Positions 2,350-29,300 of a stretch of DNA of 64,000 nucleotides are shown here, piece after piece. Source of the stretch: Botryllus schlosseri. Taxonomy: Eukaryota. Position 1 is the stretch's first letter; each line of letters starts with the position of its first letter. A program made the position numbers and the translations under genes. The notes below the pieces were generated by a model that did not search any database, had not been told where the DNA came from, and was given only the letters and a program-made list of their open reading frames with translations. The DNA is taken from positions 9,736,001 through 9,800,000 of the forward strand of contig CM119371.1 in assembly GCA_051294905.1 (NCBI GenBank), read 5' to 3'.

Positions 2350-5300
2350 CTGTAAAACGACGAAATTAAGTTATTGTCGCACATGATCTGCACAAAGAAA
2401 AGCTATTCATGGCTGAGGACGGTCAACGTAGAGGATGAACGTTGGTAGGCTACACAGGTAGAAGCGAAAGTGACTCATAAATTTGTAAGCTAACGTGGTA
2501 ACATGAGCAAATTTCTTCAAAGTGCGAGAAGGAAAAGAAGGTAAGTAATGTATCTCTATACAGCATGTTACACTAGAATATAAAAAGTGTGAGTTTAAGT
2601 ACTTTTGCCTGAAAAACTTTGATGTAGAAGTATACGTAGTCCCAATATATAGGCTACCCTCCTGAATAAGTACTGCAAGTCAGCAAAACCTACTAGAGTA
2701 CTCCAGGAAAGAGGTACCGGCTGCCTATGCTTGGTTGTAATAAAGCAACAAACATTGCAATTATTTGATATGGTGACGACAATAACAGTTAAGGCCATAA
2801 TCGTTGTGTTGTAATTTTGGTAAATTGCTCCCATCGTTCGTAGTCGATACTTTCACACCATTCAGTTCATACCATGCGTGAGGGTCTGAGGCTGGCCAAT
2901 GGCAATATCTGGAATTCGTAGTATGTCATTTACATGTAGTAAGTGCTATAAATGCGAACTAGAATCAAAATGAAACTAATTGACAGAATAATAATGAGCT
3001 TTTTGCTACTATACCAAGACAGCACTCCGTTACCCCCTCCAATACAAAAGTCTGTGCTTCCCATAGGGTGATCAAACACACTCTACATCAGGGGCGGGCA
3101 ACATACGGCCCGCGGGCCGGATCCGGCCCGCGACGGGTTTTTGTGCGGCCCGCCGACAGTTTTCGGTCTTATGTGATGATGAGGCCCGCGTCGCCGTTTA
3201 CAGGCATTTAGGCGCAAACATTTTCGAGCATGAACATTAGCAAGACAAAGTGACGTTCTAATATAACTGATGTTCACCGCATTGAAGTAGCCAGGGGCGA
3301 ATGTGGCCATGCCATTCCCCAATTTTTAGAGAATATTCGTGATATTTAAAAATAGTGGAATGTTTTCGGGCAGATGGATTCAAACTAAAAACATTTCGCG
3401 CGACTCAGTGCCTCTACGTACGTGTCTTGATTATGGAAATACAGTATCATAGATACACTAGAATAGCCCGAGGCCGTAGGGTAGCAGGAGTTTTCAACAA
3501 AGTAATTAATTATAAGGAACCCGCCCGAAGTTGATAATCTGCGATAAGCTCATGAATGTATATTCTTATGCCATGATCAATGTTCAAAATTATAATTATA
3601 CGTGCTGTAAATTTTCGAAGAAACCACTTGCCCATACACTCACCAATATAATTGATCAAATCCATTCATTTATGCAAAAATTTTCGCGCTTTGGGCGACT
3701 AGGGGCCAGATATACTGATTTTAGATCAAATTCATATCACCGATTTGGGCTCGCCCGTGAATCGGTCGCCCAATCAAGACATAGTTCGCAACTGCTGGAA
3801 TGTGTGCGTCTCTGAATTGTATGTACCAAGGGTAGTGCAGGGTAGGATGGACGGATCTGTGGCGCGTTCCCCTGGGGGGAGCTCCCATAAACTCATAAAA
3901 AAAAATCAGGAATATGGCCCGCCGCAAGTTCATGTTCCTCTATCCGGCCCGCCGGATGAAGAAGTTGCGCGCCCCTACTTTACATGTATCAAGTTCTCTG
4001 TAAACATGCAGCGGGCATTGTCAGCAAAGCTGTTCTCGACGATATTTTGGCAGCACAATTTGCTAAGTCTAATGATGGTCTGAACTTTATCAGTTTTTGA
4101 CTGTCGTGGCGTTGCGGCTGGCCTGAAATGACATTTACTAAATATTTCGCCATATCCAAAAAGTCATTTATCATCTAGGGGTGGGTATTGCATTACAAAA
4201 TATAAACTCATATATGACTTTGTTCTCGCAACAAAGCCATATATTTGAGTTTATATTTTGTAATGCAATACCCACCCCTAGATGATAAATGACTTTTTGG
4301 ATATGGCGAACAAAACCACTTGCGTTATAATCGCCAATCAAATTATATTCAACAACAACTAAATATGTAATTTAAGAATTTTCTAATTCTTTTGGGCCCC
4401 CTCTCAGCTAGTCTTTCAATTAGTGGGTTAGGGAGCATCAGCTACGGTCCAGTATATATGTTAGAGCTCGACTACAGCATTCGGCACGGTGCCGGGAAAT
4501 ACAGCCTGAGATTGATCAAGTACTTCATCGCAGAAAAAGACACAGAATAATTTGACTGTTGCGAGGATTTTGCGCTAAGCACGAATGGAACAAATTGCAA
4601 TATTCTTATTGCTCATCGAGTCATTAACTGTAATAACGATGATTTTGATCTGTTCAATGAATTGACCCAATACGGATTTTACACTGCACCGTGTTTAGGC
4701 GGATGCCATATTTAAAACTACTATCCCTACCAATACATTACAATAACGGATTAGTGAAGCCATCAGATTAGCATATTCGTTGACCGTGTCCATGTCCATC
4801 TTAACGTTCTTCCACCAACCGATATTCGGTAAGAGACATTCAGTTACCTGCATAATCTCCACATGTGCCGTAAGTAGAGATGTCGTTCGAAACTCCTCCC
4901 ACACAAGCATATTCCGGCTGGACGCCCGTCACCCTACAATGCATTAGGTAAAACTATGTATATTCCAGATCTCATCTGCCTACATTGTCATTTGCACAAA
5001 GCGGCGTCAACAGGGCGATTAATGATCTGATGAACGCTTTCCGTACTTATGTCTCGCGACGCAAAGTACAAGCCACCTGCTGCTTCCTCTATCGGTTGTT
5101 AATCTACATTTCTCAGGGGATAAAATGCAGAATGAAAATGGTTTTAAAAATAGTCACGATCGGTTCTATATTAATGCTGAGAATGGGCACTACCGATAAT
5201 TGACATCAACAAGAATGACCAATGCAAAAAATGTAACTTACTGAAACGGCATTGTCGAGAAATTTATATCTGAGTATCGACACCGAATTAACAAAGCTGT

Positions 5301-8300
5301 GATGCACTTACACAAGACCTGTACATATTCATGACAGGCCTGCATTGCAGATATTGCATTCACGGTAATGTTCATTTTCGGTGGTGTCAATTCTCGGTAA
5401 TGTCCATTCTCTATGGTGTCCATTCCCGGCAATGACATATTCTAGGTTATTTTTTATCGGTACTGACCAGACACCGTCACGATCATTTCATGTCGCATTG
5501 CATATTGGAACGAGGTCGTTTGACGTAAAGACTATGAAACTATAGGAAACTACAAAATGGCAGAACGTGCTAAGCAGGACTGTGATCAAATTTCAGGGTA
5601 GCCTATGCATCCATCGATAGGAGATCTATTCAATTTGGTTTATCTTCTCTGCGGCAAACTGTACAGTGTACATGTGATTAATCCAAAACACAATGTTATA
5701 TGGAAATCGTAAGGGCTTATTTGACAGAATAACTCTAACCAATCTGTTCATCCTATGTAATTTACATAACCTGCAAATCATAAATGGCATAACCTATTCA
5801 ATTGTTTTATTTACATGACGACTAATAGAATGACAATTGGGGTGTAAGGTGATTGATTTCTACCGCAATACATCTTCTCCCTTCCGTATGGTAAGCTACT
5901 TTAATGAGAGTTTTATACATGTGATAGCGTAGAATTACCATACTTTAGGATCCAAAAAAAGATACTTTCCTCATAAAGTTACAATAAGAGAAACAAAAGT
6001 TGGAAATTTATACAGACAATGCTGATCTTCAGGTAGATTGACTAAAAAAAACGACATTTGGGCGTTATCGGAAGACATAGGCCTACGGAATGTCGGTATC
6101 CTTATGATAGCATGTCTTCGCATTCACGGCAACCGCTACTCAAACACAAAAAATCGACCTCATACCAATTAGATCATCGAGGTGCTTCACCAATCTCTAT
6201 TCAGACACATTGTCTGCGGTTGTGTATCCAGTAGATTACATTATTCCCTGAAGCGTTGCCATCTCGTAACGACTATTAAGAGATTATTATACTGCATCCC
6301 AGGCTACGTAGCGCTATACAGTGACACATCAATGCTGCAAGAACCGTCATCAATTTATCAACTCGCTTTAGCGCTTGTACTTCTACGCAACCCGGATGAA
6401 TATCATAAAAAATGCATTCTGAAAGATATCGAATTATCCCTACCTTATACCAGGGCATAATGCATTTGCATATCCGTTTAGGTTATACGCTCGGAATTGC
6501 AGATGTCCGCTTTGGACCTGAGGCCGCATCTCAGTGGGAATCTTTTCATTCAAGGCTTCGATTGATCCTTGGTCAAAAGTCACTGGTACCGTGACAGAGT
6601 CAGCGTCCGATTGAGCTGCAGCGAAAGTTTGATATAACTACTTGACACGATGAGCGTGGACGTTGGATTGGGCTGGGCTAACTAATTGGCTAATGTAGTC
6701 ACTCCGCGAATGTAGTGACTGCTACAGTGCTACGGAGGTTACATGTCTGCGCATCTTGTAAATATTTTTTGGTAACTGTGAATTTTCGCTCATTGAATGA
6801 GAATACAGCTTCAAATCCAGACAATTATGCAAACATTTCGAAGTTATCCTGATTGTGAAGTAAAAAGCAGTTTAGGGATATGTTTGTCATACTTTACGGG
6901 TAAACTGGCTATGAACATCTTGGCGAAATAGATATTGTATTGCGATACCTAAATATACTTACTAAAATTGCACCGCTTCTTTATGTAGTATCATTAGTCA
7001 TTGCTCATTAGTCATTAGCAGGGCGATTTTTTTTTGCATGTCAAAAAGTCAATATTTTGTCAAAATTGTAGCGTTAGGTCAGATAATGGTCAGAATTGTT
7101 GGCAAAGTCCGAATTTGTATTGCAACCTGCATTTGGGTTATATCGTAGAAGTTTACTGCACTGTCGGTGAACTTATCTTCTGGCATTTTACAGCTTGTAG
7201 CCTAGCCTAATTTATAGGTCTACTGTCATTGTCAGTGATTCCCAAGCGCGACCCCGAGGGCCGCATGCGGCCCTCAGAAAGCCTTCTTGCGGCCTTCAAA
7301 AATATATAGAGAAATCGATCTATGACAAAAAAAAATTATATTTTTAAAATACTCTAGCTTAGCTTGGTATCTGTAGTTTTGAATTATAGAATTGCAGGAA
7401 AGTTGTGAGTATAGACTGCTAACGTTGCGTCATTGCTGTTTAAATGCAATGTGCCCTATCTTCCAGTTGAACCAGCAGTAGCTATAGACGTAAATAGGTA
7501 TTGATAACTATCAAAACCCGGATAAAATCCTGAAAAAATGGTAAATTTTAACCTCTTCGTGGTCGCTTGACTAAAAAAGAAAAAGAGGCTCAACTCCCGG
7601 AAATTACAGTTTTTCTTTCACATTAACAGGTGGTTGACTGAAAAAACAGGTCAACTTTCCGGTCCAGCTTCCGAAATAGCGTAGCGTTCCTACAGTGCTG
7701 ACTTGATGTATATCAGTCGAATTCGGCTCTATATGTAACCAAAATCCTCAAAAAATAGAACAAAATCTCAAAAAGAACACATTTGGGCGTCCTCTGAGGA
7801 CACTTCAAAAAAATCCAAAAAGAGGACAAATCATCTTAAAAGAGGACGTATGGTAACCCTATTCTGAAATCATATGTGAAAACACCTAATTTACTTACAT
7901 GTGGGTAGATTTTTTTCAATATGAAGATTGTTAAAGCAAAAAAATTTCTCAAAGTTTTGATTTTTAGGTCAAGATCCTGCATTTTAAAGTAAAAAAAATC
8001 GAACTAGTCATTAGTCATTTTGAGGTTTGCGACCCTTTGATCGGATCTACTTTATGCAACTGTCTAATACGATTTCTGCTTCCAAATGAAGTAGCTTTAT
8101 TTTTTTTTAAATCACTACTGCTGCTGGGCAGAATTTGATGGAGCGATCGTTTGACGAAATTACAGAATCACAAATGCTTGTAGTAAATTAGAGGATCCGT
8201 GGACCTGCGGCTGAGAAACACTGGTTGAGACCATATACCAGGGGTCTGAAACCTTTTTCGTCCGAAGAGCCATAGCGGACCCATATTTTCCATTTTAACT

Positions 8301-11300
8301 CAGAAAGAGCAATACAAGACAACCAACTGTTATGTCACGATTGAGGATTTGTGACGTCATCGTAGCACCAATTCGAATTCACTACATGGCAGTTGTCCCG
8401 TGCGCCATATATTCTTTGTTAAAACTCGTACAAATCATGGTGGTTGTCTCAATCGAGTATGCGATACTTGACTTCATAGATATTTTGGAAGTAACATCTT
8501 TTCATTTGTATTACATTGAGATCGATATTATAGTTTTCGAAGCTTAGACAAATATCAGTTAGATTTCCAACAGATTTAGACAACAGTTAAATTATGCGTT
8601 TACTATTTGCAACTTTTTACAGTCAATGCTTCTTTTGGCGTTGCATGGTGTTTCTGATGGCTTTGTAGTCTGGTTGACGTTGAGAATAAGATTCATACGA
8701 AATTTGAGGCTTTCGTCAGTTATGTGAGATCGTACGTCCGTCTTGATCCTCCTCTTACATGCGAGGACCCATGATGACATGCGTAGGTGGAGCCAAACAT
8801 GGTCGCTACAGCAGTAAATACCACTGTAAGGTGCGATACGTCAGTGACAGGGGATCAGGGGAGGCGAGTGAAGGAGGCATTGCCTCACTTGTCGTCAGGA
8901 TGAGTGAGCGAAAATTGTGAGTCATTCAATGATTATTGGTATTTTCTATTGATGTTCATATTGTTCACGGATGACAAGATATTTTAAATTATTTTATCTA
9001 AATCTCGCAACTTGCGTATTTATTGTTCGGAAATAAAATGTGAAAGGAGATTTGAGGCACAGGTGGGCAGAGCTAGGCCGAGCTTTGCTGGTGTTAGTGC
9101 AATTCATCGTAAACATAATAGAAGCTGTAATAACTGATATCAATTGAATGTGATTGTCGCACTGATTCCAATTAGACGTCTCATTTCTCAAAGTATTCGG
9201 CGGTAAAATAAAGTGGCTCGAATCGACACGCTTACATTTTAACAGTGGCACTACCAAACTAACCAACCAATCAAGAACGTGAATACCTAAGGCGTTGTTT
9301 GTAATTTTGTAATTGTGAATCTCACTTCCACGGCAGTTCATTTCGTTTCATAGATCAGAAAGAAAATGTGTTTGAAAACTGCATTTTGACACCGGCGTCG
9401 TCTTGAGAGCCATATTCTCTTCGATCATTCAACGTATCGTGCAATCCAGGATATCGAAACGGGTATAGGCTACCGAATCCACGAGTGATATTGGTCGCCG
9501 GCGCAGCAGCAACTTAAACTTGAGGATTTTGTAAAGGTGGTCCGAGCCTCTAACCGTGTATTGACCTCTCAGAGACATGTTTATACTGCGAATTATGCTG
9601 GTCGTGCTGAAATTGTAATACCAAGCTGCTGCAATATTGATAAATTAAGTAGGCCTACAAAAATGAAAATTTGGAAAAGAGCCATAGGTTCCCGACCCAT
9701 GTCATATAATATGACCCTCATATTTTAATGTTCTATCCTAAACTGTAATCAACACAACGACAGATTATTTCCTCGGGGCACGGAAACTAGGTGTGGTTAT
9801 GTACATACAACTGAGATTGGGTTCCTTAATAATAGGGATGTTTTTTAATTGCTGATCGCTGTACCTTTTCCAGAAGTACACAAAGTATACAACTTCGTGA
9901 CACATCACCATAATATATTCAAGTACTTGCAGCCTACCTTTCATCAGGTCGTGCTGAAACGTGTGGACACTTTTCAAAATCGTTTCTGCAACTGCGTCAA
10001 CATCGGATTTCGTATAAATCATCCCGTTGTCTCTGCAATAATATTACTTAAACTTGATGCACGTAAATCATCACTTCGAGTCGTAAAATTCGCTACCTCG
10101 AAAGTAGTATATATCCAAACAGTATTCGGGCAGGGGATCCTTCAATTTTATATTCACCTGATATAGATCCAAAAGAGCTAATATAGAGAAAACTTTCCTG
10201 TAGCGCCGATGGATGTTTGGAATTCCACACCTTTTAACAACAATTTTCTGTGTGTATGAATTAATGTCTTTGTATTTCGATCCAAGGATGGCATAAGCTC
10301 GAAAGTGTATTGCGAGCTGGATGAACTCAGCCGTTCATGTAACATGCCTGCGCTATAAGTTTATATTAAGTATTGAATATTAATATTATTCAGTATATTT
10401 AAGAAATATGACGATCAAATATCACAACTGCACCTACCTACTTCTTCCTAATTGTAGACAAAACAATTCACAACAAAAACAATTGCAATCTTCGTCAAAA
10501 TTAAATGTATTACTTTCCAAATACATTCAGATTTAAAAAAAATTAGCGCTCGTACCCCTTGAGCTGTCATAAAGTATTTTTCCTACTCCCTATCCAGAAT
10601 TGAAACAGCTGGACTTGGGCTCCCATAAGGTTTTCAACATAACTTATTCGGATTTCAGGGACACTAGGATTCTCAGCGACTGGAGATATTGATATCGAAG
10701 TTTGCGCCTATGCGCTGTGATTTTAGTGTCGAAATGTAAATCGCCGCCGCCGGTGCATCGAAATGTCATTGGTATTGGAGTGTTATGGGTTGGAAGTTAC
10801 GGCCAGCACCAAAATGTGGGAGTATGATATAGTGCCGGCTCAGCAGGCCAACCACTGAAGCATCCTTAAGGTATCAAAGTATCATTCGCTCATAATTGCG
10901 AAAACCTCGAGATTCATATCTGCAACTTATGTTGTATTTTTTAGTTTAAACCTACCATTATTTTGTCGGAGGGAATGTCGTATTCAAATGTGAAGTCATA
11001 ATGTACTAGAGAGGGAATCACGCTAAGCGCAAAGAAACATTGAGTTTGTGGCGACACCATGTGCCACCACCACTCCGGTAATCGAAGCGTACAGTGCTTT
11101 CTCTTATGTTCATGTCGCTTTATATATAAAGCCGTTGAATGTGCTTTTGTTCAGTTCGCTCAAGTGCTGCCTACAATAAACTTGTTGCCCGCTTAAAGTT
11201 GAAGAAATCCGACCAATAATATTCCACTTTATGTTAATTTACAAAATAATATGCGTAATTAAATAACGTTTAATAGCACACTGCATCTCGTACCCCCTAC

Positions 11301-14300
11301 TTTGGTGCTTCGTACCTAGGGCTGCATTTCAAACAAATGATTGTTTAAAACACTTTTTTCAGAACATCTTTTAAACAGCGTTTTAAACATGTTGTAAGGG
11401 CCTACAGACGATTACCACCCGATGTAGCCGACATATACGATATGGGGTGGTTGGAACCCTCAGAGCTATATTTACCCTATATTTTCACTTGTCAATGAAA
11501 ATTGACTATGACGTCACAATTGAATATTCCTGACGTCACGGCTTCTAAAAAAACATAAAAAACGTGTTTTAAACAAGGGACTTGTTTTGAAAATGTTTGT
11601 TTTAAATTTATTTCTGTTTTAAATGCAACCCTATTCGTGCCCCCAATAGATCCTTGGACATCTGTTTAAGAACTGCTGGATATAGTTTTGCTATGTATGG
11701 TGATCATATAGTAGTCATGCATAAAAAGAAGTGGTAAACTTTGTTAACGAAGTATATAGAATCATTATTAAACTGTCTCCTACCATCGTGATATACAAAT
11801 ATGAGGTTCTGTCATTAGTAATATGTATTTGAAAAGAGCAAACCTCGGTACTCGAGACGTAGAAGGAAAAGCGGCACTCGGTTTTTAGTTTCTGACTCGG
11901 TTCGTAGAACTGATTCCCGCGATAGTAGATCTCGAAGTTTCCAAGTTTCCGAGTCCCCGTGAAGTTACTGGTATTACTTTTCTCGCCTTCTATTCTGTTC
12001 GAGTACACCTGTTGGACGAATACAAACAGATATACCTAGATATAAATTTGCAACGTCTATTATTCATTTCAAGGTCAACCAATCATTTTAAACGACAGGA
12101 GATAACGCGGAAAATTTTATATTATAAAATAGTGATTCGCCGCCGTCTTCATATATGCTATAGCTTTATTGCCTTTTAACATGTCACTCTGTATTCTTGA
12201 GAGAGTCGAGTTCGGAACATGAACAAAATTTTGAATGGTAATGCGTGAACTGAACTCGTATGCTGTGTAAGCTGGATCGAAAATTCGTTTAATTCTAAGC
12301 CTGCTGCTTATCTATCTGCCGTTAATACGCAGTCTACGAACGCAGTATGCTTAAACAAGACAGAAAGTCAATGTAGCAAAGTGCGTCGTACTAATTGAAG
12401 TTACAAGGATTTACTGATTCCTTATGCTATAGTTTCGACAAAATCTACTTCTTTGCCATTGTTACATTACACGCGGTCTATGCTACCAGTTGCTACGTGC
12501 TGCGTTTCCAATCCGTACTTCGCAAAGAAGTCATACCCTGCTAGTGATTATCTCTCATCATCACCCATAAAAAATGAACGGCCATGTCATAAAAAGAAAG
12601 GAGTGGGCTGAAGCGCGAAGATCCAAGAAAATTTGGATCACTCAATATTTCTTTACTGGAGCCAGATGTGAACCCTTTCATTTACTTTGTGGCGAACATA
12701 TCGCGGTGTTTAAGGAGTATAACTTCAGTCATAATTTAAGCATCATCACAAAACCACGCGGACTTAGCTAAGCAACAAGGCTATTTTACCAAGTTACACA
12801 CTGTTAGGTAGGCAGCGTGCGACCAAGACAAACTTTTTATATCCTCAATATATTTAGGTATTTTATTAGAATCACGTGTTTAGGGGTAATGTGATTATAA
12901 AAGAACACTCCTTGTTAAAAATTGTTTTGGATAATGACGCGAAATCAATATCATTTTTGTAAATAAAGATCTACTTCCTTTTACCTAATAAACACATCCA
13001 CTCAGTTGCTTGTGTTAACTATGTATTTCACTGCTTTCAATTTGGAATTAAAATTATTACGCCGGGCAATAAAGTTTTACTTTTTCAGTCAGCCCGTCAG
13101 CGTATTTTCCGCTTTTCATTTGGCCAAATGGAAAAAGTAATTTCCCACCCCTGCCCTGACATTTAACACGTGATATCATGCATTTGGTGAAAATGCATAC
13201 TTTCCGTTGTCTATCGACATATGGAGTATATAATGAATTTGTAACTATATATTATTTAGCTTTATATTTACTCACTTGTATTGCGTAGTCACTGCTATAT
13301 CCGTCATCGTTTCTTACTAATATCAATGCCATCGATGGGGATGTCAAAGTGCTGAATGATGTTGATTGACACGGCCAGCTGGAAGAATTGAGATGCATAT
13401 GACATTTATCAGCCATTGTATCATAAAAATAATTCAGTATGATTGTTATTGCTATTAGAATATACGTATTTAAATGTCACTCTTCACACGAACAGCGTCA
13501 TCTCATCATGCTTTACTTTTAATTTCAAATATAATATAATGTTGATGATAACTACATGCAGAAACATTCACATAAGCATTGAAACGAGAAACCCTCTTAA
13601 ATGCTACTGCAGGGATAACGGTAATTGCTATTTTCTCTGGTTTTAACAATGATTAGTATGGAGTGAAAAACTTGTTTAGTTCGTAAACTCCAAAGAATGA
13701 ATGAATCAATTAAAACCACGAAAACCTCCTCGTTTAGTATAGGTCATACCGTCTTTCTAGTGTATAGCGGTGATTCTTGACAATTGGATATTTTTCCCCA
13801 AAGCTGTTATTCTGCATTTCGTGAGGGAAGTTTAAATCAAATTCGTCTAAAGCAAGCTTGTCCACACTGGATTAACATAAACGTTCTTCGTTGTACTAAT
13901 TCCGAAGGAACTCCAAAATTTTGTGAATATTCCAATTACAGTATTAATCAATTGTATACGACAGAGCTGATCATTTATTTTTCTCAGCGGGCCAATTGTG
14001 CAGTGGAGAATACGATGGCGGGTCTGATAAATTTTTTAGTTATATTGGCTTACGAATTTTAATTTTCCTTCCAAATTGCATTGTTATTGAATGCTGCTCA
14101 GTGAATGTGATAATGCTAGGTAATGCGAAATTTACGGTTGATTGAAGAAATATCTATTTGCCGTCATGATTCGAGGCAATGTTAAGCACGATACATGCTC
14201 ATTTAACGTCGTTCAACTATCTTTAAACCCGTCTCCACGTTCTACTAATAAGACACTAAAACACTGGTTCTCAAAATTTTTCAGGCACGCCCACCTATAT

Positions 14301-17300
14301 GACAGTGAAATATTTCGCGTAATAATCTGAAACACAGATGGTATAACGCGTAATATTACAATGGCAACAAAGAAGGTTTGAGCTAAACTATATGAAAAAA
14401 TTGATTTCTTATGACTTTAATTGCTACTCATACTTTGCTACATTGAATTTATTTTCAATCTGGACACGCGGCGTGGCGTATTAATGCACTGGCTTCAAAG
14501 CAAACGAATTTCCTGTTCAGCGGATAGAGCCTACGGCTTTAGTCCACACATCAACATTCAATAAGCAGGTTTTCTGTTTTGAATTCGAAGCAACCATTCG
14601 CGGGCCGAACATGAAATGATTGAGGAGCTGACTGCATCGTAGTGGAGAACAATTTTGAGCTCAACACAAAGTTTTATATATCTTTAATCCTTCTTAGTTC
14701 TGGATTCACAATTGAATCAAATAGAAAAACTCTCATTCGAGTCGGGTTGAACTTATCGACGTTGCCATTCCCCGCTCATATTTGATCGTACGTGTTTTCA
14801 GTACAGTGACAACGTTTCTGACTCACGGCAGAAACCGACTTTACAGTACGGGACGTAGACACTAGAAATGTTAGAATGAGATATGGAGAGAATGATGATA
14901 ACCATCATCATTCATCCGTCTTATCATTGGCTGTAATAAATGCAGAGAAAATTTCGTTTGATAAATTTAGCGTGATGAGGGGGTGTCGGGGGGTGCTGGC
15001 ATTTTCTTCGTTTTCCATGGGGCGGTAGCTCGAAAAAGTTAGGCAAACACTGGTGTAGTTGACTGAGTTGTTGGGTTTGCTAAAAAGCTGCGCATCAAAT
15101 CTGGTTCAATTACAACCTGCGGAAGCGAGGTCATTGAAGTACATAATTTTGGATCTGAATAAAATATTATAGACGGTTGGTAATCCCATAATTAATATTG
15201 AATGATTACATGGCACATATCCGCAAGTCAACAATGAATGCTTCTTACTTGAATAATAGGTCACAACAGTAGGCTGCACCTGGACAGTATCCTACATAAT
15301 TATCGATTTAGAAGGACTAATGCTAAATGTGGAGCAATATAATGAATATATTAATCAGCACGCGGTTATATTTATCCTAAAAAGTACCTACGTTTTATTC
15401 TTTCCGTACTGTAAGTAGTGCCACCATTGATTGGTCACAAATCTGATCTAAGAATAAATAGAGATATCAAAACGAGTTTTGTGAGTGCAGTATTGGTTGA
15501 CGTAAAGTAAAATAGGTTGACCGAAAAGAATTCGCCAATAGTAAAGTTTAAGGCATTCGAGCTCGTGAACGTTGTGCAAGATTTTGGATATCTCTACACG
15601 AGGGTGTGGGAGCTAGGTGCCAAGCCTTACTTTGAAAGGACGATTAATCGAGATTTGTTCTCTTGTTTTTTCTGTAAAAAATAAAATAGCTAATGGTGCA
15701 TGTACGGGCTCTCGTGACGAGGTCTAGCTTAAGTCGTATCAATGATTTCACAATGAAGCTACTACATTGGTGACACAATTACGAAAGACTTTAAATCCCT
15801 GGATCGTAAGTTTACGGAATTGCTATTCCGTAAATGGACTGGGCTTCATGATTCGGATCTCGAATACGAATCGAGTGTTGATTGTCATGATTCGAGTAGC
15901 GGGAGACAATTTTTTCCAGTACTTGAATTATGCGCTCTCTTTGATGGTTATATGAAACGACTGAGAGAACTATTACCGAAAATAATATTGCCGCGAATTG
16001 ATGTTTTCGAGAATGTATTACTACAGAATGATGATGGTGTGTACACCATATGGACCGTGACGCTCATCCCAAGAACCAACAACACTAACACAGAGGTGGT
16101 TCAAGTAGTAAAGACGGCTACACAAATAGAAATACAAGTGGCGACGCAAAAATCTACTGAAGTCTGAGTACAAGAATTCGTTTTATTGACATCCTAAAAC
16201 TACTTCAAGTGAACGTAGAATTAGCTTGCTTCAAGTCTAATCAGGTATAAGGAAGGAAGTAACTATGTAAGTAGTTGTGAGAAGCACGTATAAATTTGCC
16301 CTCATAGGCTGTCAAAATCAGAAAAGTGCAAATGGCTGGGATTGTGCTGCTTCATACAAAAACTTAAAAAGTTTCCACTGCATCATGGGATGTAAAAGAT
16401 AATTACACCAGTGCCTGATTTCATATAATAACATGGAATAGTGATCTCACCGTATTTCGAGGCTCGTAGTTAAGGCGAAGAGCAAAGGTATCAGATACTG
16501 CATTAACGAGTTGCGCGATTTTCGTAAATTAACATGAGGTAGAGTACATTTGAGAAGATGTATTCAACTTGAAATTTTTGTTCGCAAATCGCATCGCATT
16601 TTTTAATTTTTGACCAACGGCATACCAATAAATAAAAATGACAAAATACGCCTAAATAAAAGGATGAGTGTACACTAGGGGTCTTCAAAACTGACTTTTC
16701 TGCTCCCATCGTACTGGGTACTTGATAAAACTGTTAGGTTACCTAATTTAAGCCTACACACCAAATTTGGTTCAATTCCAACCAGTAGCCGCATTGCTAC
16801 AGGAGAAGAAAGTTTCTATCTATTATTATTATTATATTCTTTATTCACAGTAAAACTGGTAAATACACACATAATCCGGGGAGCAACCTGCCCCCAAAGG
16901 AAAATGGCGAGATTGGAGTAAATTTTTAAAATTTCAGTAATACATTCAAATTGTTATTCCTATGCAATACATGGAGAAGTCAGATTACAGAATTGCAGCA
17001 GATGAAGAATTGGCAAGGGTTACAGAGCAGAGGTAGAGATGATTGAAGATGAAGAATCGAAATTACAGAAATCATGCTGTGATTCACAATTGTAATTTTA
17101 GTCCAGTGGTGCATTCAAGGCCTTCCGAAGAATGTGCACAGTGCCCAATAATGTGATCTTTTGGATCATGTCAAATCGAACGTTACCCGGAATTTGTTGG
17201 ATATGTCTCATGAGTTTTGTGCTCACGACCCCTGTAGCGCCAATGACTATCGGTACAATGTTTATTTTGCATCGCCACATTTTCTCACATTCCATTTTGA

Positions 17301-20300
17301 GCTCTGCGTATTTGGAGTGTTTTTCTAATTCTTTTTGCAGTAGGTTGTGATCAGCTGGGACAGCCAGTTTAATGAATAAGCATTCTCTTTTCTTTTTTAG
17401 TTTGACGATTATATCCGGACGGTTGTTCCTGATTTCGCGGTCAGTCATAACTGGTACATCCCACAGAATTTTTACTTGTTCGTTTTCTGTCACTGGTGCT
17501 GGGCTGTAATCGTACCAATTTTTTGTCGAAGTGGTGATGTCAAAATGTTTGCATAATTCAAGATGAATGTAGTGGCCAATCCTATTGTGTCTCCATGTGT
17601 ATTCGGAAGCTGCGAGTGCACCACAGCCAGACATGATATGTGCTACAGTTTCATTTTGGTTGTGGAACATTCTGCACTTGCCGTCCGTGTTTTGCTTCAG
17701 ACTTCTTTTGCGATAGTATTTTGTAGGAAGCGATTGGTCTTGTGCTGCGAAAATGAATCCTTCGCTTGCCGATTTCAGACCAGAGCTGGATAGCCAGGTC
17801 CATGAAAGCTCGTCTACTTCGGGCTGTGAAGTTAACTTCTTGTGCTGTCAATGAAGAGGCATCGACTCCCATATCGTTTCTCTCATTTTGAGCGTTGCAT
17901 TTTTGTATTGAATTCGTGCTGCTTTTGCTATTGTTGTGGGTTTAGCAACAGTGTTTTCTGCAGTGTACAGGTTAGCTGTTTCCATGTTGACTTGTCTGGC
18001 GTACTTGTCGTGACGATAGCTCAGAGATTTTGTTTTGCGCTGTTTGTCTTCCTGTGCAACGAGTTTGCAGTAAATGTTATCGCTGTTGTTGATGTACTGT
18101 GACAAGCCGATGATTTCTGTTTTGAAAGTTTGTTCAATTTCTTGTAGTCCTCGACCACCTTTTTTTCTGGGGATGTACGGTCTTTGTGTATCAGATTTTG
18201 GGTGATGCATGTGGTGCATTGTCATCAGTTTTCTCGTCTTCGTGTCCAATTTTTTAATTTCATCTTTGAGCCAGTTCACCACACCATAGCTATATCTCAA
18301 GACAGGCACTGCAAGACTGTTTATGGCATTGATTTTGTATTTGGAATTGAGTTCAGTTTTGAGAATTGACTTGAGCCTGCTGATGTATTCTTTTTTTAGA
18401 CTTGATTTCATTGCAGCATGTTTAATGTTGTCGCTTTCACAGATCCCTAGATATTTATAGTGATCTTCGGCATTCCCTTCTGTTATGGTTTCACCCTTTT
18501 TGAAGTTCATGTCGCCAGTGCTGGTGGCTCTTCCACGTCGTATGGTAAGTTTGGAGCATTTATCTAAGCCAAATTTCATTTTATATCTTCCAAAAACCCA
18601 TGAACAATTTTCATTTGCTTATTCAGGTCCGCATCTGATTTTGCATACAGTTTCAAATCATCCATGAACAAAAGGTGATGTATCTTTTGACCTTCAGAGT
18701 TTGCTGCTTTTTTCATCACGTATCCTGTTTCATTTTTTTTCAGCAACTCGCTGAGTGGAGCTAAGCTGAGGCAGAATAGAAGTGGTGAGAATGAGTCGCC
18801 TTGAAAGATACCATTACGTATCTGAATTGTACAGGTTTCTGTTTCACCTTGGTCATGTTTGATCAACAGTTTGGTATGTCAATTTTTCATTGAATTTTCA
18901 ATAAATCTGATGATGATCGGATTCATTTTGTACATACGCATTGTTTTCAGTATCCATGTGTGAGGGACTGAATCGAAAGCTTTTTTGTAGTCTATCCATG
19001 CCATGCTGAGGTTAGTGTGTCTCCTCTTGCAGTTTTCAAGAATGGTTTTGTCAAGGAGCAGGTGGTCCTTACAGCCAAGGGCGCCTTCCTTGCATCCTTT
19101 CTGCTCAGGCGGAAGAAGGTTTTCTAGGTGTTTGTAGCTTCGTTTTGCCAGGATTTTGGTCAGTGTTTTGTACATGGTTGACAGGCATGTTATCGACCTG
19201 TAGTTCTTGGGGTCCCTGGTGTTTTCATTTTTTTGGAATAAGATATGTGATCCCTTGTGTGAACCAGGCTGGGATCTCGTGCGAGTTGGTTGAGCATAAA
19301 AGCTCATTGTAGGTCGCCGCTAGGTAATTATGTGTAGCAGTTATTTTTTTTAGCCAAAAATTTTTGATCTGGTCAGGACCAGCTGCTTTCCAGTTCAGTG
19401 AACTTTTTAGGGCCTCCTTGATTTCTTGTTTTGTGATTTCTGACCATTGTTGTTCTGGTGTTTGTAGATGGTCAGTGTCCAGGTCTTGTATCCAATTTGC
19501 ATTTGAGTTGTGCAATTTTTTGGTTTCCCATATTTTCTTCCAAAATGATTCCACATCTGTAGTGGCTGGTATTTTGCTGCTGGTAATTTTTTGATTTGAC
19601 TTTTGTTTCATCATTCGAAAAAATTGTCCAGGTTTGCGAGCAAATAACAAGTTTTGGCGATATTGTGTTTCTCGTTTTTTATCTCGTTTCAATCGTTGTG
19701 CTTTGGTGCATATTCTCATTTTTAATTCTTCTTGCAACATTGACACTTTTTCTGTTGACTTCAGTTTGGTTTTATGCTCCAGTTCTATTCTTTTCACTTT
19801 ATATTTTACTTTGTGGGAAACATTTCCTTTTTTTAGTTCCGAGAGTATCGCAACGTCACACCTTAGTTTTGCGATTTTGTTTTCAATTCTGCGTTGCCAA
19901 GCTGGCGTATGGCTTCCCCTTTTTTTGTTGACAGTTCTTGGTATTTTGCAGTGCCTTTCTGAGATAACTGCCGCAGTGCTGTAAATGAGGTTGTTGATTG
20001 TTGTCAAGGGACATTGTGGTCTTTCTCCTTGTTTTCCATTTAGAGTTGCAGGTAGTATGGTTTCTGTCAAAATTTTGTTCGCTACTGCAATATCAGTTTT
20101 CAGTTTCTTTGTAATTTGTAGGTCAGGTAACTGCACTCTGTCATTTACATTCAATGTGGATTTCATTCGGTCGATGATTTGATTTTTGATCTCCAATACT
20201 AATTCCGTGTCTATGTCACCATCGTTAGGTGTTGATGATTCATTCGGGTGCCCGGTGGTATTTTGTAATTCTACTTCTGCGATGTTCGGGTCATCAAGTG

Positions 20301-23300
20301 ATTGTTGTGGGTTCAGGTCATCTTGGCCGAATTGCAGTTCCAGTGCCTCAGAGGTTTCTACGTTTTTGTTACACATTTCTCCCTCGATTTCTGCGAGTTC
20401 TTGTTCGGTTAATTTTTTATTTTTTAATACACAACGTCTCATTGTTGCCAGGGTATTGGCAGTCATGGTTGGGGAGTTGTTTGTTCTCTCTTTCCATTTT
20501 TGAAAAGTTCCTTCGGTTACTCCTGCCGAGTTTTCAAATTTGGCTAAGAAGTAACATCTCATTATTTCTTTATACTCTTCCTCACTCCATCTGTGTCTCT
20601 TCTTTTTTTCTTTTGCAGCATAGCTGTTTTGTGAGCCACAGTTCGGTGTTGCACAGGCGCCATGTTGAGAAATATCTTCTCTTTGGTGTTCCTGTGTGGT
20701 CGGAGTTGACGAGTCCTCAGGGGTCATCCGCTTGGTCCGACGGCGGGTACGTCCAGGTGCGATATATCCAGATCGTTTCGCAGGCATCCACAGCAGTGAT
20801 GCGTCAGTTCAGAAGTTAGGTTAAGTTAAAGTAATTAATTAATTATTTATTGATCCTTAATACAACCAAATACTCCAAATATTATTATCATATTATTTAT
20901 TCACAGTAAAACTGTGAATATTATTATTATTATTATTATTGGTAAAAACGATGAAAAGATAGTGTCGCTTTTCACATCAAAGCCTTTTGCGTCACACCAT
21001 AGCATGCATATGAGAAATGCACAAACTTATAATGCAAGAAATATTATAATGATGGGAAAATTAATGGTCGACAGAGGCATACACAGGTATATTTGGGTGA
21101 TCTATAGGGACACATCCAATTCGAAGACATAACCACTACGAATTCAGAGATATTAACATTTAAATAAAGCGCCTTGTTTCCTTGACATATTGAATGACAT
21201 GATCCAACATGCATTCACTAGTTAATAGGTCTACTGTATTAAAAAGACTGTCATTATTAATATAGCGTTTCAGATTTGCACGTTGCCGTACATACTTCGT
21301 ACAGTTCATTAGATAATGATCGACGGTTTCGGGCAACGAACATTGTTCACATAGAGGTGAATCATTGCATCCAATCTTATGCAGGTGGTAGTTGAGCCGA
21401 CAATGGCCTGATCTCAACCGAAACAAAATGATTTGCTCTTTTCTCGATGTTAAACTTGGTAACCTCTTGTAAATCGTGTCTTTGATGAGCTTGTACTGAC
21501 TTCCGGTGTCGCTTGTCCTGTACAGTTGATCCCAGTTGTTTCTGCACGAGTTCCTAAGGAGCGAGTATGCATCCCCTACGGAGACGAAGTCCAATTGTTG
21601 ACGGGGCGGTGTTTCTGATGCTGTAGCGCTTCTTGCTAATTGGTCGGCGATTTCATTGTGCTCAATACCACAGTGTGCTGGAATCCACACAAGTGATATT
21701 GTGACCTCGCGTTGTTTCAATTGGTGTATCTTCTCGACTATCTCGGTAATAAGGAGAGGAGCTGCGAAATTGAAATTTGCTATGCATGTTGATGCGCTCA
21801 AGCAATCACTGAGTATTGCCACTCTACTGTGGGTATTATTCAGCACCCAAGATAGGGAATCTGAAATAGCGATTAGTTCTATCTATTATATAAAAATAAA
21901 TATTAAAATACTTTAAAAATTTCTGTTCACCCCATAAAAGTGTTAGGTTTTCTATAGAAACGATAGCATTTGAGGTGTTCGCTACATCTCGGCATACATA
22001 GGCTTACCATACGTCCTCTTTTAAGAGGATTTGTCCTCTTTTTTGACTTTTTTGAAAGTGTCCTCGGAGGACGCCCGTTTGTCCTCTTTTTTGAGATTTT
22101 GTCCTCTTTTTTGAAAATTTAGGCAGATTTAGAGCAAATTGCGAGTGATATGCCGCATATTAGTACTGAAGTGAAGCTCCGGCGGGTATTTCGGAGTGAA
22201 AAACGGTGATTTTAGCTCTGAGCGAAAAGATGACCTTTTTTTTTTTTTTTTTATCCACCCGGCAAAGTGGAGTAAAAAACGTTATTTTGAGCTCTGAGCG
22301 GAAGTGATGACCTTTTTTTTTTTTAGTCAACCGATCACGAAGTGGGAAAAATTAACCGGTTTTTGAGAATTTGACTCCGGATTTGCCAGTTGCAAATTTC
22401 TGAAAAAGTGTCCTCTTTTTTTATCTCCAAAATATGGTAAGCCTAGGCATACATGACCTGCCATAGGCTATGTACGGGCGAGAAGAGGGTGAGAGTCTGG
22501 CGATCTTTTTCTATTTTTTTTTCATGGTTTACATTCCCTCCTGATGTTGTCCAGGATATCTTCCAGGTGGTCTTGTCCTTGGAGTCTTGTTCTTGCTTCG
22601 AGTCTCTGTAGTATTGATTTTTCTTTCCACTTGTATCCCAATTCCTTCCTTCAAACTTTGTCTTGTTTCTTGCCATCCAGGTGGCTTGCTTGAATATCGT
22701 GAATATTTTCATGAGTGCCGCTTCTTGGGTATCTGTCATGTTCCCCTCTGTATGCATGTTGAAAATTATATTGATGTCGGCTGGCTGGGTTCTCTGGTTT
22801 GTCACCTTGCTCCACGCATCTATCAATTTTTGCACGACTTTGGCTGTATGTTCGCACTTCGAGAAGAGGTGGGTGTGTGTTTCGGTGTGGCTCGAGCACA
22901 GCTCGCATTCCATTTTATTTGTTATTCCCGCTGTTTGCAATCTGCCATTTGTTGGTAGCATCTGGTTAGCCACCATCCAATTCAGGTCCCTCTGTCTTAG
23001 CGTGAGGGTTGGATGGTGTATGTTAGCCCAATTGGGCCCTTTCATTTCTTCTATGTCTCTGGAGTGTTTCCTTTCTAGTATGTCGGTGTAACGTTTTTTG
23101 TTGTCCGTCGTTTTAATCTGTGTTTTGTCTATACCCAGTCCTGTCATTGTTTCGTTTATTTCCCTCCAGTGTCTCTGTGGCTTCAAGGTGTTTGGCCTGG
23201 TGGTTGGTGTTCTATGTGACTGATATCTTTTCAGGGTGAATGCTAGCTGATGGTCTATTCTTCTTTCCCATTCCTCATTTATGTTCTCTTGGCCTTTTCT

Positions 23301-26300
23301 AAAGTATTCGACTGCCGGCTTTATGAAGATCATATCTGTTATTGTGGGTATGTCGGTCAGCTGCCTTCCTCCCTATTCCTGGCTCTGGATTATCTTGTCG
23401 TAATCCGCTCTTCTGTCCTTTCGGAAGATCAGGCTGGTGAGTATTCGCTTTAATTCGCTTCTTGTTTTGCCAGGCATTCTTGTTATGGCTGCGGGATATG
23501 TAAACAATGGTAGTATGTTGGTCGCTACCAGACTGATTTCCTGCTGTCTTTCGAAATGCATGTTCTTGATCTCATTTGTTATCTTTTTCATCTTTTTCAT
23601 TGGTTCTTCCCAGTGTTTTTCTTTATCTGGGGTTTCTCTTTCTACCATGTGCCCTAGGATTACCATCTCTTCCACCCATTTGATGTTGGTTTGGGTGTTT
23701 TTTTTACCAATTGTTTGGAAAGTTATTTCCTTGCTTTTTTCTTTGTTTATTCTTAGGGCGCTCGCTTCTCCGAACTTTTCTATGATTTCAATCGCCTCAT
23801 TTGTATCCTCCTGTCTCGCCAGCGTTATGTTTACACCGTCCGCGTATGACGGTGCAGTGATCGTTTTCTTGATTCCAGGTAGTTTGTAGCCTGTGAGTTC
23901 ATGTTCTAACCTTTGTAGTAGGGATTCTGTCGCGATCGTGAACAAATACATCGAGATGGGATCTCCCTGTTTTATCCCCCCTTTCATCTTTATTTTCTTC
24001 CCCACTCTCCCCCCTATCAAGATTCTCGCCTCTCCGAGCTCATATACTTTTCCAAAGAAGTTACAGAAGTTTCTCCCTAGGCCCGCTGCCTCCATTGTTC
24101 TTTTCAGGAATTTATGATCAACGGAGTCATAGGCTTTCTTGAAGTCTATTGAGAGTATCGTTCCTTTTCCTTTCTCTCTCATTTCGGAAGTTATTTCTCT
24201 TATTAGGAGGTTCAGTTGCCCTGTGGTTTTGGGCGGGTTTACGTGTTCGTTCTCATGGGTTATGTCTGGTAGCTCTGTCTTTAGTCGATTGGTCAAGATT
24301 TTGGTAAGGATTTTGTAGTCCGTGTTGAGAAGACTCACGGGTCTGTAGTTTCGAATTTCTTTTTTATCACCTTTCTTATAGATTATTTTGAGTACTGCTC
24401 TTGCTAGGTTCGGGGTGATGTTCTGTGTTTGATACATTTCGTTGAGAGTTTCAAGCATTTCCTCAGCCATCGTGTCGATGTTGATCATATACAGTTCTGC
24501 ACTCAACCCGTCCTCCCCCGGGGTTCTGTTTTTCTTCTGTTGGAGGACTGCTAGCCTGATTTCGTCCATCTCGATCCTTCTGTCTATTTGCTGACGTTGT
24601 TTGGCTGTGAGGGCTCTATTTTGGTAGCAGAGGTATTCTTCTGCTGTTATTTCATTCGTTTCTTGTCTGCTATAGAGGTCTTCATAGAATGTCTCAATGA
24701 GGTCCCCTATTTCTTTTGGATCTGTGGTGGTACGCCCTGTAGGAGTGTTCAGTTCGTGTATTGACGCCATTTCTCTCCTTTTCTGAAGGGCCTTACAGAG
24801 TGTGTATTTGTTGTTGTTTAGCAGTGAGTGTTTTTCTATCTTTTCCTCCTTTTTTAACTTTTGGAGTTGATCCTCCTTCATCTTCCAGAGGATCTTTTTC
24901 TCTTTTTTGTAAAGTATGCTAGAGTGGTTATGTTTTATGATGTTTTCCCTTTCTCTCAGCAGTTTTTCTTGTTGTTTCTGTATCTGTTTTCTTTTTTCAG
25001 CTGTGACTTTCTTTGTATGTTTTATCGCAAGCTCTTTTATTCTAATCTTCATGGCCTCCCACCATTCCACCCTGGTTGGGTATATGATGGGGTAGAGTGT
25101 TTTCCACTTATCCCATTTCTTTTGCAGTTCGGTCGCGAACTTGTCCGTGTGATTGATTTGTACATTGTTTTTCCAAATTGTTTTGTGTTTTTTCTGTGGT
25201 TTTCCCTATGGATATCGTTGCCATTACGGTATCGTGATCAGATAGTATGCAAGGGATGTGTTTGGGCGGATATCACGACGTTATCAATATAAATTCGAAA
25301 TGTACCAAATGGCCAATGGCTTCAAGTTCGATATTGGTACACTCGTTACCAGTCCATCAAGTGTCGATCAAGTTTATCGGAATATAATATTTTCCCGTTG
25401 AAACGAATCGAATAATCGAATTGAACACTGTGCCATGCACATTGTGACATGCCCATAACGAATTAAACTATGCAGTATGCACATTGCATATTTACAAGTC
25501 ACAGTGCCCGTTAATCCGGGAATACTAGAGTATCAAGCTGACATCAAGAATGAATTTACGAAACAGATGATTAAAAATTGGAAATTGCGTATCAAATCAC
25601 TAATTGTCTCCCACATAAAATACCATGGGGTCCTGACATCGCATTGACTAGCTCGCACCGCGACAATTGTTTGCTAGGTATAAGGGCGGTTTGGGCTACT
25701 CTTCTGCCATCCTCTATTTACGCTCGAAAATCATTACTGGGGTAAATGACGATCATGCGCAGTGATGAATTCTAATTAAAATGCATAATTGCACACTTAA
25801 TAACACTGTCCAATTTCGCGGCCCGATTAAACAACTATACTACTAAAGAACGAGTATTTGCTCATTCGATTCATAGAAACGATGAGATGGAATTTCTCGA
25901 CTCGTGCTCGTCATATTGACATGTGCAGCAAAATCACGTTTTTATCCTCTCTCCCATTTCGCGTAATACATAGTGATCATTATTTTCAAACCGTACAATT
26001 GGTCAACAAGGTTGTGCTGATGATGAAATTGCGAGTATGCCGAATACCCATAATATTCACAGGCATATTTCACATACCGAGGTTCGGCACCCATGTACGA
26101 AAATTGAACATTGAACATATGACTGCTTCGCTATTAAATCACCAGGGATATGGCTAGTCGGAAAAGGTAGCGCAAAACGATTCTTAATTTCGCGAAGGCC
26201 TGCACCGTGCAGATAAGGCCGTCAAATAAGGTAAATAGGAGATTACCTTGGGCCGCAATCCGGACCGTAACTAGTAAACCCCGAAACCCCATTGAGGAGA

Positions 26301-29300
26301 AGTAGGGTTCTGGTTTAAATCAGTCTGATTTAAATCAGTGTGATTTAAATCAGGTTTTTTTTCTTGATTTTTGATTTTAATTTCACCATTTCGATTTTAA
26401 TGATTTTTTTGATTTTTTCACATTTTCTGACGAGATGCGTGAATGTGGTTTATTATCGGACAATCATGTGCGTTTTATATTAACCGGACGTAGTATTTCG
26501 TCACCGGCACCGCTATGGTTCAGCTATTTGACAGACAGGGGGAAAAGAGCAAAGAGCGGTACGGTAGTCAATCAATATGTTAGTGTTTTTGCTGTGGATA
26601 GTTAGTTGTCTACGACATGCTGCTGCTATTTCTGAGGCACTCGTGCGATACCGAAAAGGAAGCACAATCCGGAGTCTCTATCGAAAGATTCCCTAATCTC
26701 TGATGCATAAGCGTTGCAAAAATCAGTTTGCAGTTATTGCGGACTGGAGCGATGGGCCAACTAGCTGTGGAATGTGAACACAAGTAAGATACCATGTCAT
26801 TATGTGTGATTCATATTTATGTAGCTGCTTGAATACTGGTTATGGATTGAAATAGAAATGAATCTGTGTGCACCGTAAACAGGAACTCATGCCGTAAAAC
26901 ACCATGTCCCTAGATTTATCAGAACACGCGCATGACGTTTGGTGAAAATCTCACCCTTGACTCATCCCCTCAAGCTCGATGCTGAAGCAATCAAAGGCCA
27001 TAACTTTTGCCATTGGCAAACATCTATTGGGCAATCCCGCTTGTATATGTTAACCAAAAATATGGTAGCTCGTAAGATTGCCATTTACCTTTAATTTTAC
27101 TTCAGAAAAAGAGAGACAATACGGCACTTGGATTTTGACTTAAACATGCATGCTGTGCTCAGAACAAGCAAGCTCCAATTACATAGAATAACTGTAAGCA
27201 ATGATAGCGACATCAAAACATATAGAAAGAAAAGATTTAGACCAGTGGTTTCAAAACTTTTTTTGACTAATCGCATGTCTGAATTAAAAATCTTGCATTT
27301 TTGCAGCCATCTCTGGACAATACCTCTGCTGCCCTTCTCTTATCAAGCTGGATGTGGCTCAAGCTCGAGATTAAAAAGACTATTGCTCTTTGTGCGGACA
27401 ATAAAGTCTAATGTTGTCAAAGATGCAGCTACAAGAGCATCAACTCATGTCGGGGACCATCATTTAGTTTCATGGATTCTAGATCCTCGAGTTAGAGGAT
27501 GTAGCTTGGACAATTGACATTAATCGCAAAAGAGTTGTTCGAGACCTGGCAAAATGAATATTTTCAAAGATGGAACCGAAATGCAATGATTAGTCTGCTG
27601 GTAACCTATAATCGAACAATTGGTTGGATTGATTATGATTGTAAAGTTGGTGAGTATAATTGTGTACACTCCACACACACTGAATGTCCCTTATCTTCCC
27701 TTGATTTCTAGGAATTTTCGATGCAGAATCGAGTATCTCGGTACCATATCTAATTCATCAGCCAGCATTATTCTGGATGGATCATGCCGGTGTTCTCCAA
27801 AGCTTTCAAGACTCGCCTTTCGTCCGTTGCACATGCTGCATCTTGCGAGGGGCATCAGTCATGTGCAGCCGCAACTGCAAACAAGAGTCGTGATTGCCTG
27901 CCACAGGCAAATCTTGAAGTGATCCTGCGAGTGAAAGATCACTTCATGGACTATGCTACTAACAAAGCAGATGAAGAGTTCAGGAAGATCAACAGTTTGC
28001 TGGCAGAGACCAATCCATCAATCAAGATGATGGTGCAACTATAATAGATGGTCCCGAGATAAATCAACGTGTTCCTCGCTACTAGAAGAGATCAGTAATG
28101 ATTCCAACGACCCATCATTACCACATAGGTTAAACGTTTTCAGCTATGTGGGTGATGATTCGCAGCCCCACATTATGAAAATTTAAGCGTTTTCTTTCAT
28201 CACCTTGATTGACAGTGTCGTCATTGATCGCATTTTCTTTTATTCGTATTGTCTTTGTTATTATAAGTAAAAAAACCAAAAAAATCAAAAAAATCATGAT
28301 TTGAATTAATTATTCGATTAAAATCGATTTTAATCAGAGGCAAAATGATTTAAACCGGAACCCTAAGGAGAAGTGAGTTCGAAACGAGAAGAATAGTATT
28401 TCTTTAATCAAAGCAAAGTGGTGTATTTACGGGTATATTTGTTCCATTAGAATTTTTCATTGCACGGTTTAGTGATGTTAATATGGACACCCTGTCCCCC
28501 TAAATCTAGAACAGTATATCACGTTCATACAGTCGAACGAATTGGCCATGACAAATTATGCGAACTTTGTTATAGCAACATTTGAATTTGCCTACCATAT
28601 GTCCATAGTTTCCAAACATATCGTGGTCCGTAATCCGGTCTGTGGTGTAATCGGGCATGCTATAGTTGTACCAGCCAGAAATCAAATTCTTCACAGAAAA
28701 ACTCTGTGACACGGCATGTAATATTGTTGCCCTGTAATCTGAAAATAGTGTCAGTATAGCACTTCGCGATGATTTGTGTATCGAACCGTATTTTATATAA
28801 ACTCGTAATTTTCAATAAACGATTTCATGGCCGAAACACTCAATGTGAAATGTCAATATGGAAGCCAATCTTACCGTTCCCAGCGGCAATAGGAAAGTGA
28901 TCGCTGAATAAATTTTTCAGATTTCCGCCGTACTTCTGTAGAAATTGATTGGTCGACCGATATTTGAACATAGTTCCTGATTGCATTGAATCTAATTCCC
29001 ACTGACTGCGAACATGCCACACCATCACATCAGATGCCTGTAAAGATAGAAATGGTAATCAGGTCAATACCACAAAATCTTGAATTTATGCATGGACATT
29101 GGACAATCAATCGATAGTGGTATTTTGGCTCGACAAATGGCATGTCTGCTTCAAAAACTATACCTTTTACACCTAAATTGAAATATCCTGAATTAAACAC
29201 ATGAAACTCTCTTACAGGAATGACATTCAATGATGCAATATGCTTCATCGCTGCTTGTAATGTATAGGCCTACTTACGTTTATTTTGTAATAGCCTTCAT

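Follow-up and report, generated by a model that had tools for sequence, protein, structure and literature searches.

A predicted separate domain nested in a lectin loop of an intelectin-like gene of the ascidian Botryllus schlosseri

Introduction

Intelectins are usually regarded as single-domain, secreted, microbe-binding lectins of chordates. The 64,000-nucleotide stretch of the Botryllus schlosseri genome that is analysed here (G000:C1:9736001-9800000, referred to as the window; positions without this prefix are those of the window) contains an intelectin-like gene on the minus strand, gene A, in which additional exons lie between the exons for the N-terminal and the C-terminal half of the lectin domain. 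This raises the question of whether these exons belong to the lectin gene, what they encode and how they came to stand in its middle. An earlier note on this DNA had taken them for an extracellular, unnamed domain of about 280 amino acids that was gained by exon shuffling and could be skipped as a whole. The copies of the gene in this genome are labelled A and B (in the window) and P0 and C (beyond it). As laid out below, gene A probably belongs to an ascidian subfamily of intelectin-like proteins in which a surface loop of the lectin domain hosts a separate domain of 232 residues. A literature search found no description of an inserted domain in any intelectin; an intelectin with a nested extra domain is a conserved but undescribed design.

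Results

Exon structure of gene A and position of the insert

A search with a conserved lectin exon gave intelectin-like proteins of Styela clava and Ciona as the nearest protein matches of gene A. The gene extends at least from 37514 to 2246 and comprises the 14 exons listed below, which are all open and have canonical splice sites and consistent phases from the membrane-anchor exon to the TAA stop codon. Splicing and translation by machine cover the part from the last N-half exon to exon C1; exon ends beyond that part were counted by hand on the printed sequence.

37316..37514, minus strand: putative membrane-anchor exon, 199 nt, phase 1 to 2, conserved in comparison with paralog C (G000:C1:9870742-9870556)
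32715..32832, minus strand: lectin exon Nx0, 118 nt, phase 2 to 0, also kept in P0 and C
32500..32629, minus strand: lectin exon Nx1 with the fibrinogen-like GGGW segment, 130 nt, phase 0 to 1
29278..29369, minus strand: lectin exon Nx2, 92 nt, phase 1 to 0
28875..29037, minus strand: last N-half lectin exon, 163 nt, phase 0 to 1, matching 4wmq_A 136-186 and 7e1e_A 162-214
28596..28738, minus strand: module exon M1, 143 nt, phase 1 to 0, amino acid identity 87% to P0 and 47% to C
15392..15447, minus strand: module exon Mx, 56 nt, phase 0 to 2, with a counterpart of equal length between AG and GT in each of P0, C and B
13276..13378, minus strand: module exon M2, 103 nt, phase 2 to 0
11844..12008, minus strand: module exon M3, 165 nt, phase 0 to 0
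10097..10230, minus strand: module exon M4, 134 nt, phase 0 to 2, sharing 36-37% identity with S. clava P0004/P0005
9938..10032, minus strand: module exon M5, 95 nt, phase 2 to 1
6444..6615, minus strand: first C-half lectin exon C1, 172 nt, phase 1 to 2, matching 4wmq_A 199-248
4848..4933, minus strand: lectin exon C2, 86 nt, phase 2 to 1
2246..2349, minus strand: last lectin exon C3 with the TAA stop codon, 104 nt

The insert is located between a lectin donor (GT at 28875) and a lectin acceptor (AG at 6615), both in phase 1, and is itself preceded by an AG before 28738 and followed by a GT after 9938, again with both ends in phase 1; the acceptor of M1 lies 137 nt past the donor at 28875 and matches its phase. 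The four boundaries given in the earlier note, and its description of the insert as a cassette with symmetric phases 1-1, were confirmed, and the four module motifs that it named are present in both window copies. Its estimate of the module size had to be corrected. M1 ends in phase 0 and M2 starts in phase 2, showing that one exon was missing between them, and this is the 56-nt exon Mx (15447..15392), which was found by way of two weak matches of a hidden Markov model (HMM) built from S. clava that gave no significant matches. Thus, the module consists of six exons with 143 + 56 + 103 + 165 + 134 + 95 = 696 nt, a multiple of three, encoding 232 amino acids. Another candidate for the missing exon, 32 nt at about 14330..14299, was rejected since its likeness to paralog C continues past the donor and paralog C has no splice sites there. 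The gene model shows six extra exons between the lectin halves, predicted to be joined in frame via canonical splice sites.

Canonical intelectins of known structure (human 4wmq/4wmy, the Xenopus lectin XEEL 4wmo and the lamprey serum lectin 7e1e) are homologous to gene A in the N-terminal fibrinogen-like segment and in both lectin halves. The last N-half exon matched 7e1e_A with an E-value of 5e-5 and 4wmq_A with 1.4e-3, and the Xenopus lectin was aligned as well. The match of C1 to solved intelectins was weak (E 0.013), and exons C2 and C3, searched singly against the PDB, gave none. The insertion point corresponds to a 12-residue loop of human intelectin-1 (PDB 4wmq), between residues 186 and 199 of 4wmq_A; solved intelectins have a loop of 8-12 residues where gene A has 232 residues. 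Since the flanking exons match 4wmq_A up to residue 186 and again from residue 199, a direct join of 28875 to 6615 would leave a loop of about canonical length. In nested domain-in-domain insertions generally, the insert sits in a loop of the host and its ends are close together, and the same would hold for gene A. The motif DNGP, which precedes a strand of the C-terminal half, is kept in XEEL and in module-less paralogs but was lost in the module-bearing clade. Therefore, in a product without the module the loop would be canonical in length but not in sequence.

In the N-terminal segment, Pfam detected Fibrinogen_C on 32629..32453 (E 1.6e-4) with 22 bits at a cut-off of 22, and Nx1 is 68% identical to S. 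clava P0002, annotated as 'intelectin-2-like'. The exon at 37514..37316 encodes basic residues followed by a hydrophobic stretch of 19 residues, a feature conserved in paralog C, and would take the place of a secretion signal. This composition, which resembles that of the type II anchors in the S. clava relatives, suggests a type II membrane anchor, and with such an anchor the module is probably extracellular, as the earlier note had assumed.

The insert is shared with Styela clava

Inserts at the same loop are present in the S. clava proteins P0004 (632 amino acids), P0006 (595 amino acids) and P0019 (657 amino acids) and in the 681-residue protein P0005. They comprise approximately 240-255 residues and are colinear with the spliced models of A, P0 and C across all six exons. 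P0005 is encoded on a single contig of 2,140 nt and, therefore, free of introns and transcript-like; its best exon identity in the B. schlosseri genome is 72%, so the protein does not come from this genome. P0017, an ectodomain form, matched XEEL (4wmo_F) in two separate stretches, 16-157 and 408-522, with an E-value of 4e-46. The S. clava genes LOC120342979, LOC120335122 and LOC120335029 (P0004, P0006 and P0019) have the same build as gene A, comprising anchor, N-terminal half, insert and C-terminal half. They differ from it in sequence, the module exons M1, M3 and M4 of gene A being matched at 32-38% identity, and some of them have a Thr/Ser-rich stalk whereas gene A has none. Four records of LOC120335122 vary only at the N-terminus and the module is retained in all four. 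As far as alignment of the predicted proteins goes, the insert of gene A is shown to be colinear with the S. clava insert at the same loop.

The S. clava relatives are labelled "uncharacterized" in public records. The older 657-residue model P0019 was replaced by two newer models, P0002 (362 amino acids) and P0018 (223 amino acids), which are split within the module. Two publications name intelectins among the markers of the S. clava endostyle (PMC10980280, PMC9953650).

Tandem paralogs, selection and a mosaic pattern

Besides gene A, there are two complete tandem copies, P0 at 9656760-9710754 and C at 9817049-9866719 of the same contig. The module has 696 nt in P0 and 693 nt in C, where M1 comprises 140 instead of 143 nt; lengths and phases of the other exons are equal, and the spliced models of A, P0 and C contain no stop codon. 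Between A and B only exon-sized islands could be aligned (68-87% nucleotide identity), with translated alignment in one frame only, whereas introns were not alignable between A and B or between A and C, repeats aside. That the islands coincide with exons is more than expected by chance. The ratio of nonsynonymous to synonymous substitution rates (dN/dS) was determined by the method of Nei and Gojobori (NG86) for module exons M2-M5 (492 nt) and for lectin exons (657 nt). For the module it amounted to 0.17 (A-C), 0.30 (A-P0) and 0.09 (C-P0), ratios that are rough in the older pairs since synonymous sites of the module are near saturation there; for the lectin exons it was 0.20-0.23. Judged from the coding sequences, the six module exons are shown to be under purifying selection in three complete tandem paralogs.

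The comparison of A and P0 revealed a mosaic. Lectin exons, M1 and most introns are 85-96% alike (flanking introns 85-94%), but in a block at ~5.2-14.6 kb of the window (~5170-14600, containing C1 and M5-M2), compared with G000:C1:9658574-9673973, only the exons align, with 71-87% identity. Synonymous divergence between A and P0 is 0.76 in M2-M5 and 0.15 in the lectin exons. This pattern points either to flanks that underwent gene conversion or to a block that was replaced. Mx stands out in addition: 14 of its 56 nucleotides differ between A and P0, compared with 60 of 581 in its flanks (Fisher p 0.0033). Twelve of the changes are nonsynonymous and two are synonymous, and the 25% of sites changed in Mx compare with 10% in the flanking intron. 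The fast change of Mx points to positive selection or micro-conversion.

The module has no named family and is predicted to form a beta-sandwich

The module alone gave no Pfam family at E<=10, and the single module exons gave none either. In seven full-length or ectodomain relatives, Pfam found only Fibrinogen_C, located at the N-terminus. A profile search of the PDB with the module returned a single chance match (E 0.27), and a search of the ESM Atlas returned no usable match. The description as an unnamed domain holds accordingly for Pfam families and for sequence matches in the PDB.

The fold was predicted with AlphaFold2. The module of P0005 alone gave a model with a predicted local distance difference test score (pLDDT) of 75 and a predicted template modelling score (pTM) of 0.82, containing a helix (residues 4-26), approximately 11 strands and a second helix (residues 214-232). 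A second, independent AlphaFold model, of the whole ectodomain of a protein that is 37% identical in the module, had the same elements, and its module blocks reached pLDDT values of 65-96, mostly above 80. In a structural comparison with VIA-align, the best matches were 5h3z_A (169 residues, 3.6 A) and 5nz7_A (181 residues, 3.7 A), with borderline Z-scores of 8.4 and 8.3. Judged by title, glycoside hydrolases/phosphorylases, polysaccharide lyases/epimerases and mutarotases made up 40 of 50 rows for the first model and 42 of 50 for the second, and the aligned ranges correspond to non-catalytic sandwich domains of these enzymes, the fold of which we take to be the one named "galactose-mutarotase-like". 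Domains of this kind (N-domains of GH65/GH94 phosphorylases, GH63, GH116, aldose 1-epimerases and the periplasmic domain of YidC) matched best, over 168-181 of about 240 residues, but with only 6-11% sequence identity at Z 8.3-8.4 and without a sequence match in Pfam or the PDB. Unlike these domains, the module has fewer strands and two flanking helices, and it is nested in a lectin instead of being joined to a catalytic domain.

Incomplete copies near gene A

The window contains a second copy, paralog B, with the following parts.

48948..63885, minus strand: paralog B
63885..63783: M2 of paralog B
55363..55199: M3 of paralog B
53216..53084: M4 of paralog B
53016..52922: M5 of paralog B
about 51113..50946: lectin exon C1 of paralog B
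about 49646..49536: lectin exon C2 of paralog B
49055..48948: lectin exon C3 of paralog B

Mx of this copy lies beyond the window, within G000:C1:9809412-9809327, and its M4 has a deletion of 1 nt (133 instead of 134 nt). Neither M1 nor N-half exons of paralog B were found between B and gene C. Therefore, the second paralog of the earlier note does have the conserved motifs, but it is a 5'-truncated, frameshifted copy and not a complete gene. Exons of B and C are 89-90% alike, and the 16 kb upstream of B match the M1-M2 intron of C at 66-85%; on this comparison, paralog B is a partial duplicate of the C lineage. Between A and P0, at G000:C1:9731310-9733453, there are intelectin C1-like pieces, frame-broken and with a stop codon, and a C3-like piece, which look like a decayed intelectin copy.

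RNA reads and retrotransposons

Reads of the runs X1, X6, X9 and X10 were mapped to 9850..29100, 6-13% of each run being read. Nearly all mapped reads fell on retrotransposons at 17098-25205, where RNA reads from these element families reach a depth of 340. These elements are located in the intron between M1 and Mx.

17098..25205, minus strand: non-LTR retrotransposon open reading frames with Pfam RVT_1, zf-RVT and RNase_H, outside the gene product

Many of the retrotransposon reads have GT..AG gaps at 18543>18626 and 18672>18742. Run X1, whose label as RNA is a guess, covers 29 of 30 bins, introns included. A contig from X1 runs along the last N-half exon until it departs from the genome sequence at 29041, and its loose letters are like a diverged copy of the intron. 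A splice at 29041 was rejected as an explanation of this contig, since the letters resemble the intron and not the upstream exon; it probably comes from a paralog or another haplotype.

Alternative readings of the locus

Several observations weigh against a functional gene with a folded, nested domain. An exon with the start codon of gene A was not found. Mean RNA depth was only 0 to 0.34 in the bins containing M5/M4, M3, M2, M1 and the last N-half exon, and it was 0 in the bin of Mx (14986-15627). Both structural models rest on shallow alignments of 3-6 full sequences plus exon fragments, and in the whole-ectodomain model the lectin halves reached pLDDT values of only 22-60, so that no statement is made on the packing of module and lectin. 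Foldseek matches of the module in the PDB were weak, with template modelling (TM) scores of 0.19-0.31. VIA-align typically gives Z-scores of 7-8 without a true match, which is why the likeness to mutarotases, although reproducible, is a lead at the level of the fold and not a family membership.

The nearly absent read depth on the module exons and on the last N-half exon in three RNA runs could mean that gene A is silent or decaying, an intact-looking pseudogene. The lack of a 5' exon, the neighbourhood of the truncated, frameshifted copy B and of a degenerate fragment, and several retrotransposons in the introns of gene A would agree with that. But a decaying gene is hard to reconcile with 14 open exons with canonical splice sites and consistent phases, or with dN/dS values that are 0.2-0.3 even against the recent copy P0, and immune lectins expressed in few tissues can easily escape notice at a reading of 6-13% per run. 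We consider a pseudogene unlikely. One could also imagine that the six exons form a gene of their own within a long lectin intron, since without them the two lectin halves would be separated by a single intron of 22 kb and the module does not resemble lectins in sequence. However, no start or stop codon bounds the module exons, the acceptor of M1 follows the lectin donor closely and in matching phase, the donor of M5 is in the phase of C1, and the S. clava proteins, including P0005 on its 2,140-nt contig, read through from lectin to module to lectin. This makes a nested gene very improbable.

Origin and splicing of the module were viewed in the earlier note as those of a mobile 1-1 cassette that was shuffled into a phase-1 intron and whose skipping as a whole gives a long and a short isoform. 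Indeed, the flanking introns are in phase 1, the 696 nt of the cassette are a multiple of three, donor (28875) and acceptor (6615) both conform to the canonical pattern, and their direct join would give a loop about as long as in 4wmq and in module-less paralogs. Yet in none of three module-less intelectin paralogs (L024, L026 and L027) was an intron found at the insertion site, which is spanned by one open exon in each, so that a pre-existing phase-1 intron is unsupported. No other protein context of the module was found either, in searches that were weak: a profile of M3 run against 1.84 billion proteins returned one spurious repeat protein and also missed the known relatives in S. clava, and a search for homologous proteins found none with M3. 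A search with the lectin exon C1, at a strict E<=0.001, found none. Among 15 genomic matches to module exons, 11 have a match to a lectin exon no more than about 15 kb away, and the context is established for those 11 only. Skipping in turn would have to bypass six exons across 22 kb (28875>6615, 22.3 kb), all four S. clava records of one gene retain the module, and the canonical DNGP motif is absent from the module-bearing clade. Shuffling with whole-cassette skipping is, hence, even less credible than a pseudogene, and the shuffling origin proposed earlier is not supported. An M2-like and an M3-like exon were noticed at C17:2056451-2056736 of the same genome (L028/L029), with no lectin exon in the 16 kb examined; they are either a fragment or a module in another context. 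Further module matches stand on C5 and C7.

Discussion

We propose that gene A, as a member of a subfamily with a domain nested in the lectin loop, encodes a type II membrane protein with the lectin domain directed outward. If the protein is of this type, lectin and module would both face outward. The module is presumably included constitutively and the long form is probably the normal product. According to the structural models, the module would fold alone into a beta-sandwich of about 11 strands with one helix at each terminus, and the two helices may serve as a stalk that brings the ends of the module back to the lectin loop. The weakest step concerns function: the module may provide a second, faster-evolving surface for recognition of glycans or other targets beside the lectin site. 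Since the module changes faster and its predicted fold points to carbohydrate enzymes, a second recognition surface is the most likely role.

A further reading goes beyond this proposal. The nested domain could be the variable recognition part of membrane-bound immune receptors of ascidians, with the lectin homogenised by gene conversion and the module varied by block exchange among the tandem paralogs and by positive selection on Mx as a short hypervariable exon. The difference in synonymous divergence between A and P0 (0.15 in the lectin exons, 0.76 in the module), the unalignable introns of the block and the fast change of Mx hint at such a diversification, which we regard as doubtful. If it were true, the protein would be a diversified innate receptor on an intelectin scaffold, with a logic comparable to that of FREPs or VCBPs.

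Annotation pipelines mishandle this design, as seen from the S. clava gene that was split in two and from others that are carried as "uncharacterized", and a correct exon model is, therefore, useful in itself. Ascidians are the closest invertebrate relatives of vertebrates. In the proteins of the subfamily described here, which would be tethered to the membrane, the lectin fold would host a second, probably carbohydrate-related domain. If the module does bind a ligand, they would act as receptors with two binding sites and would show, in a natural case, that a lectin fold can tolerate an inserted domain.

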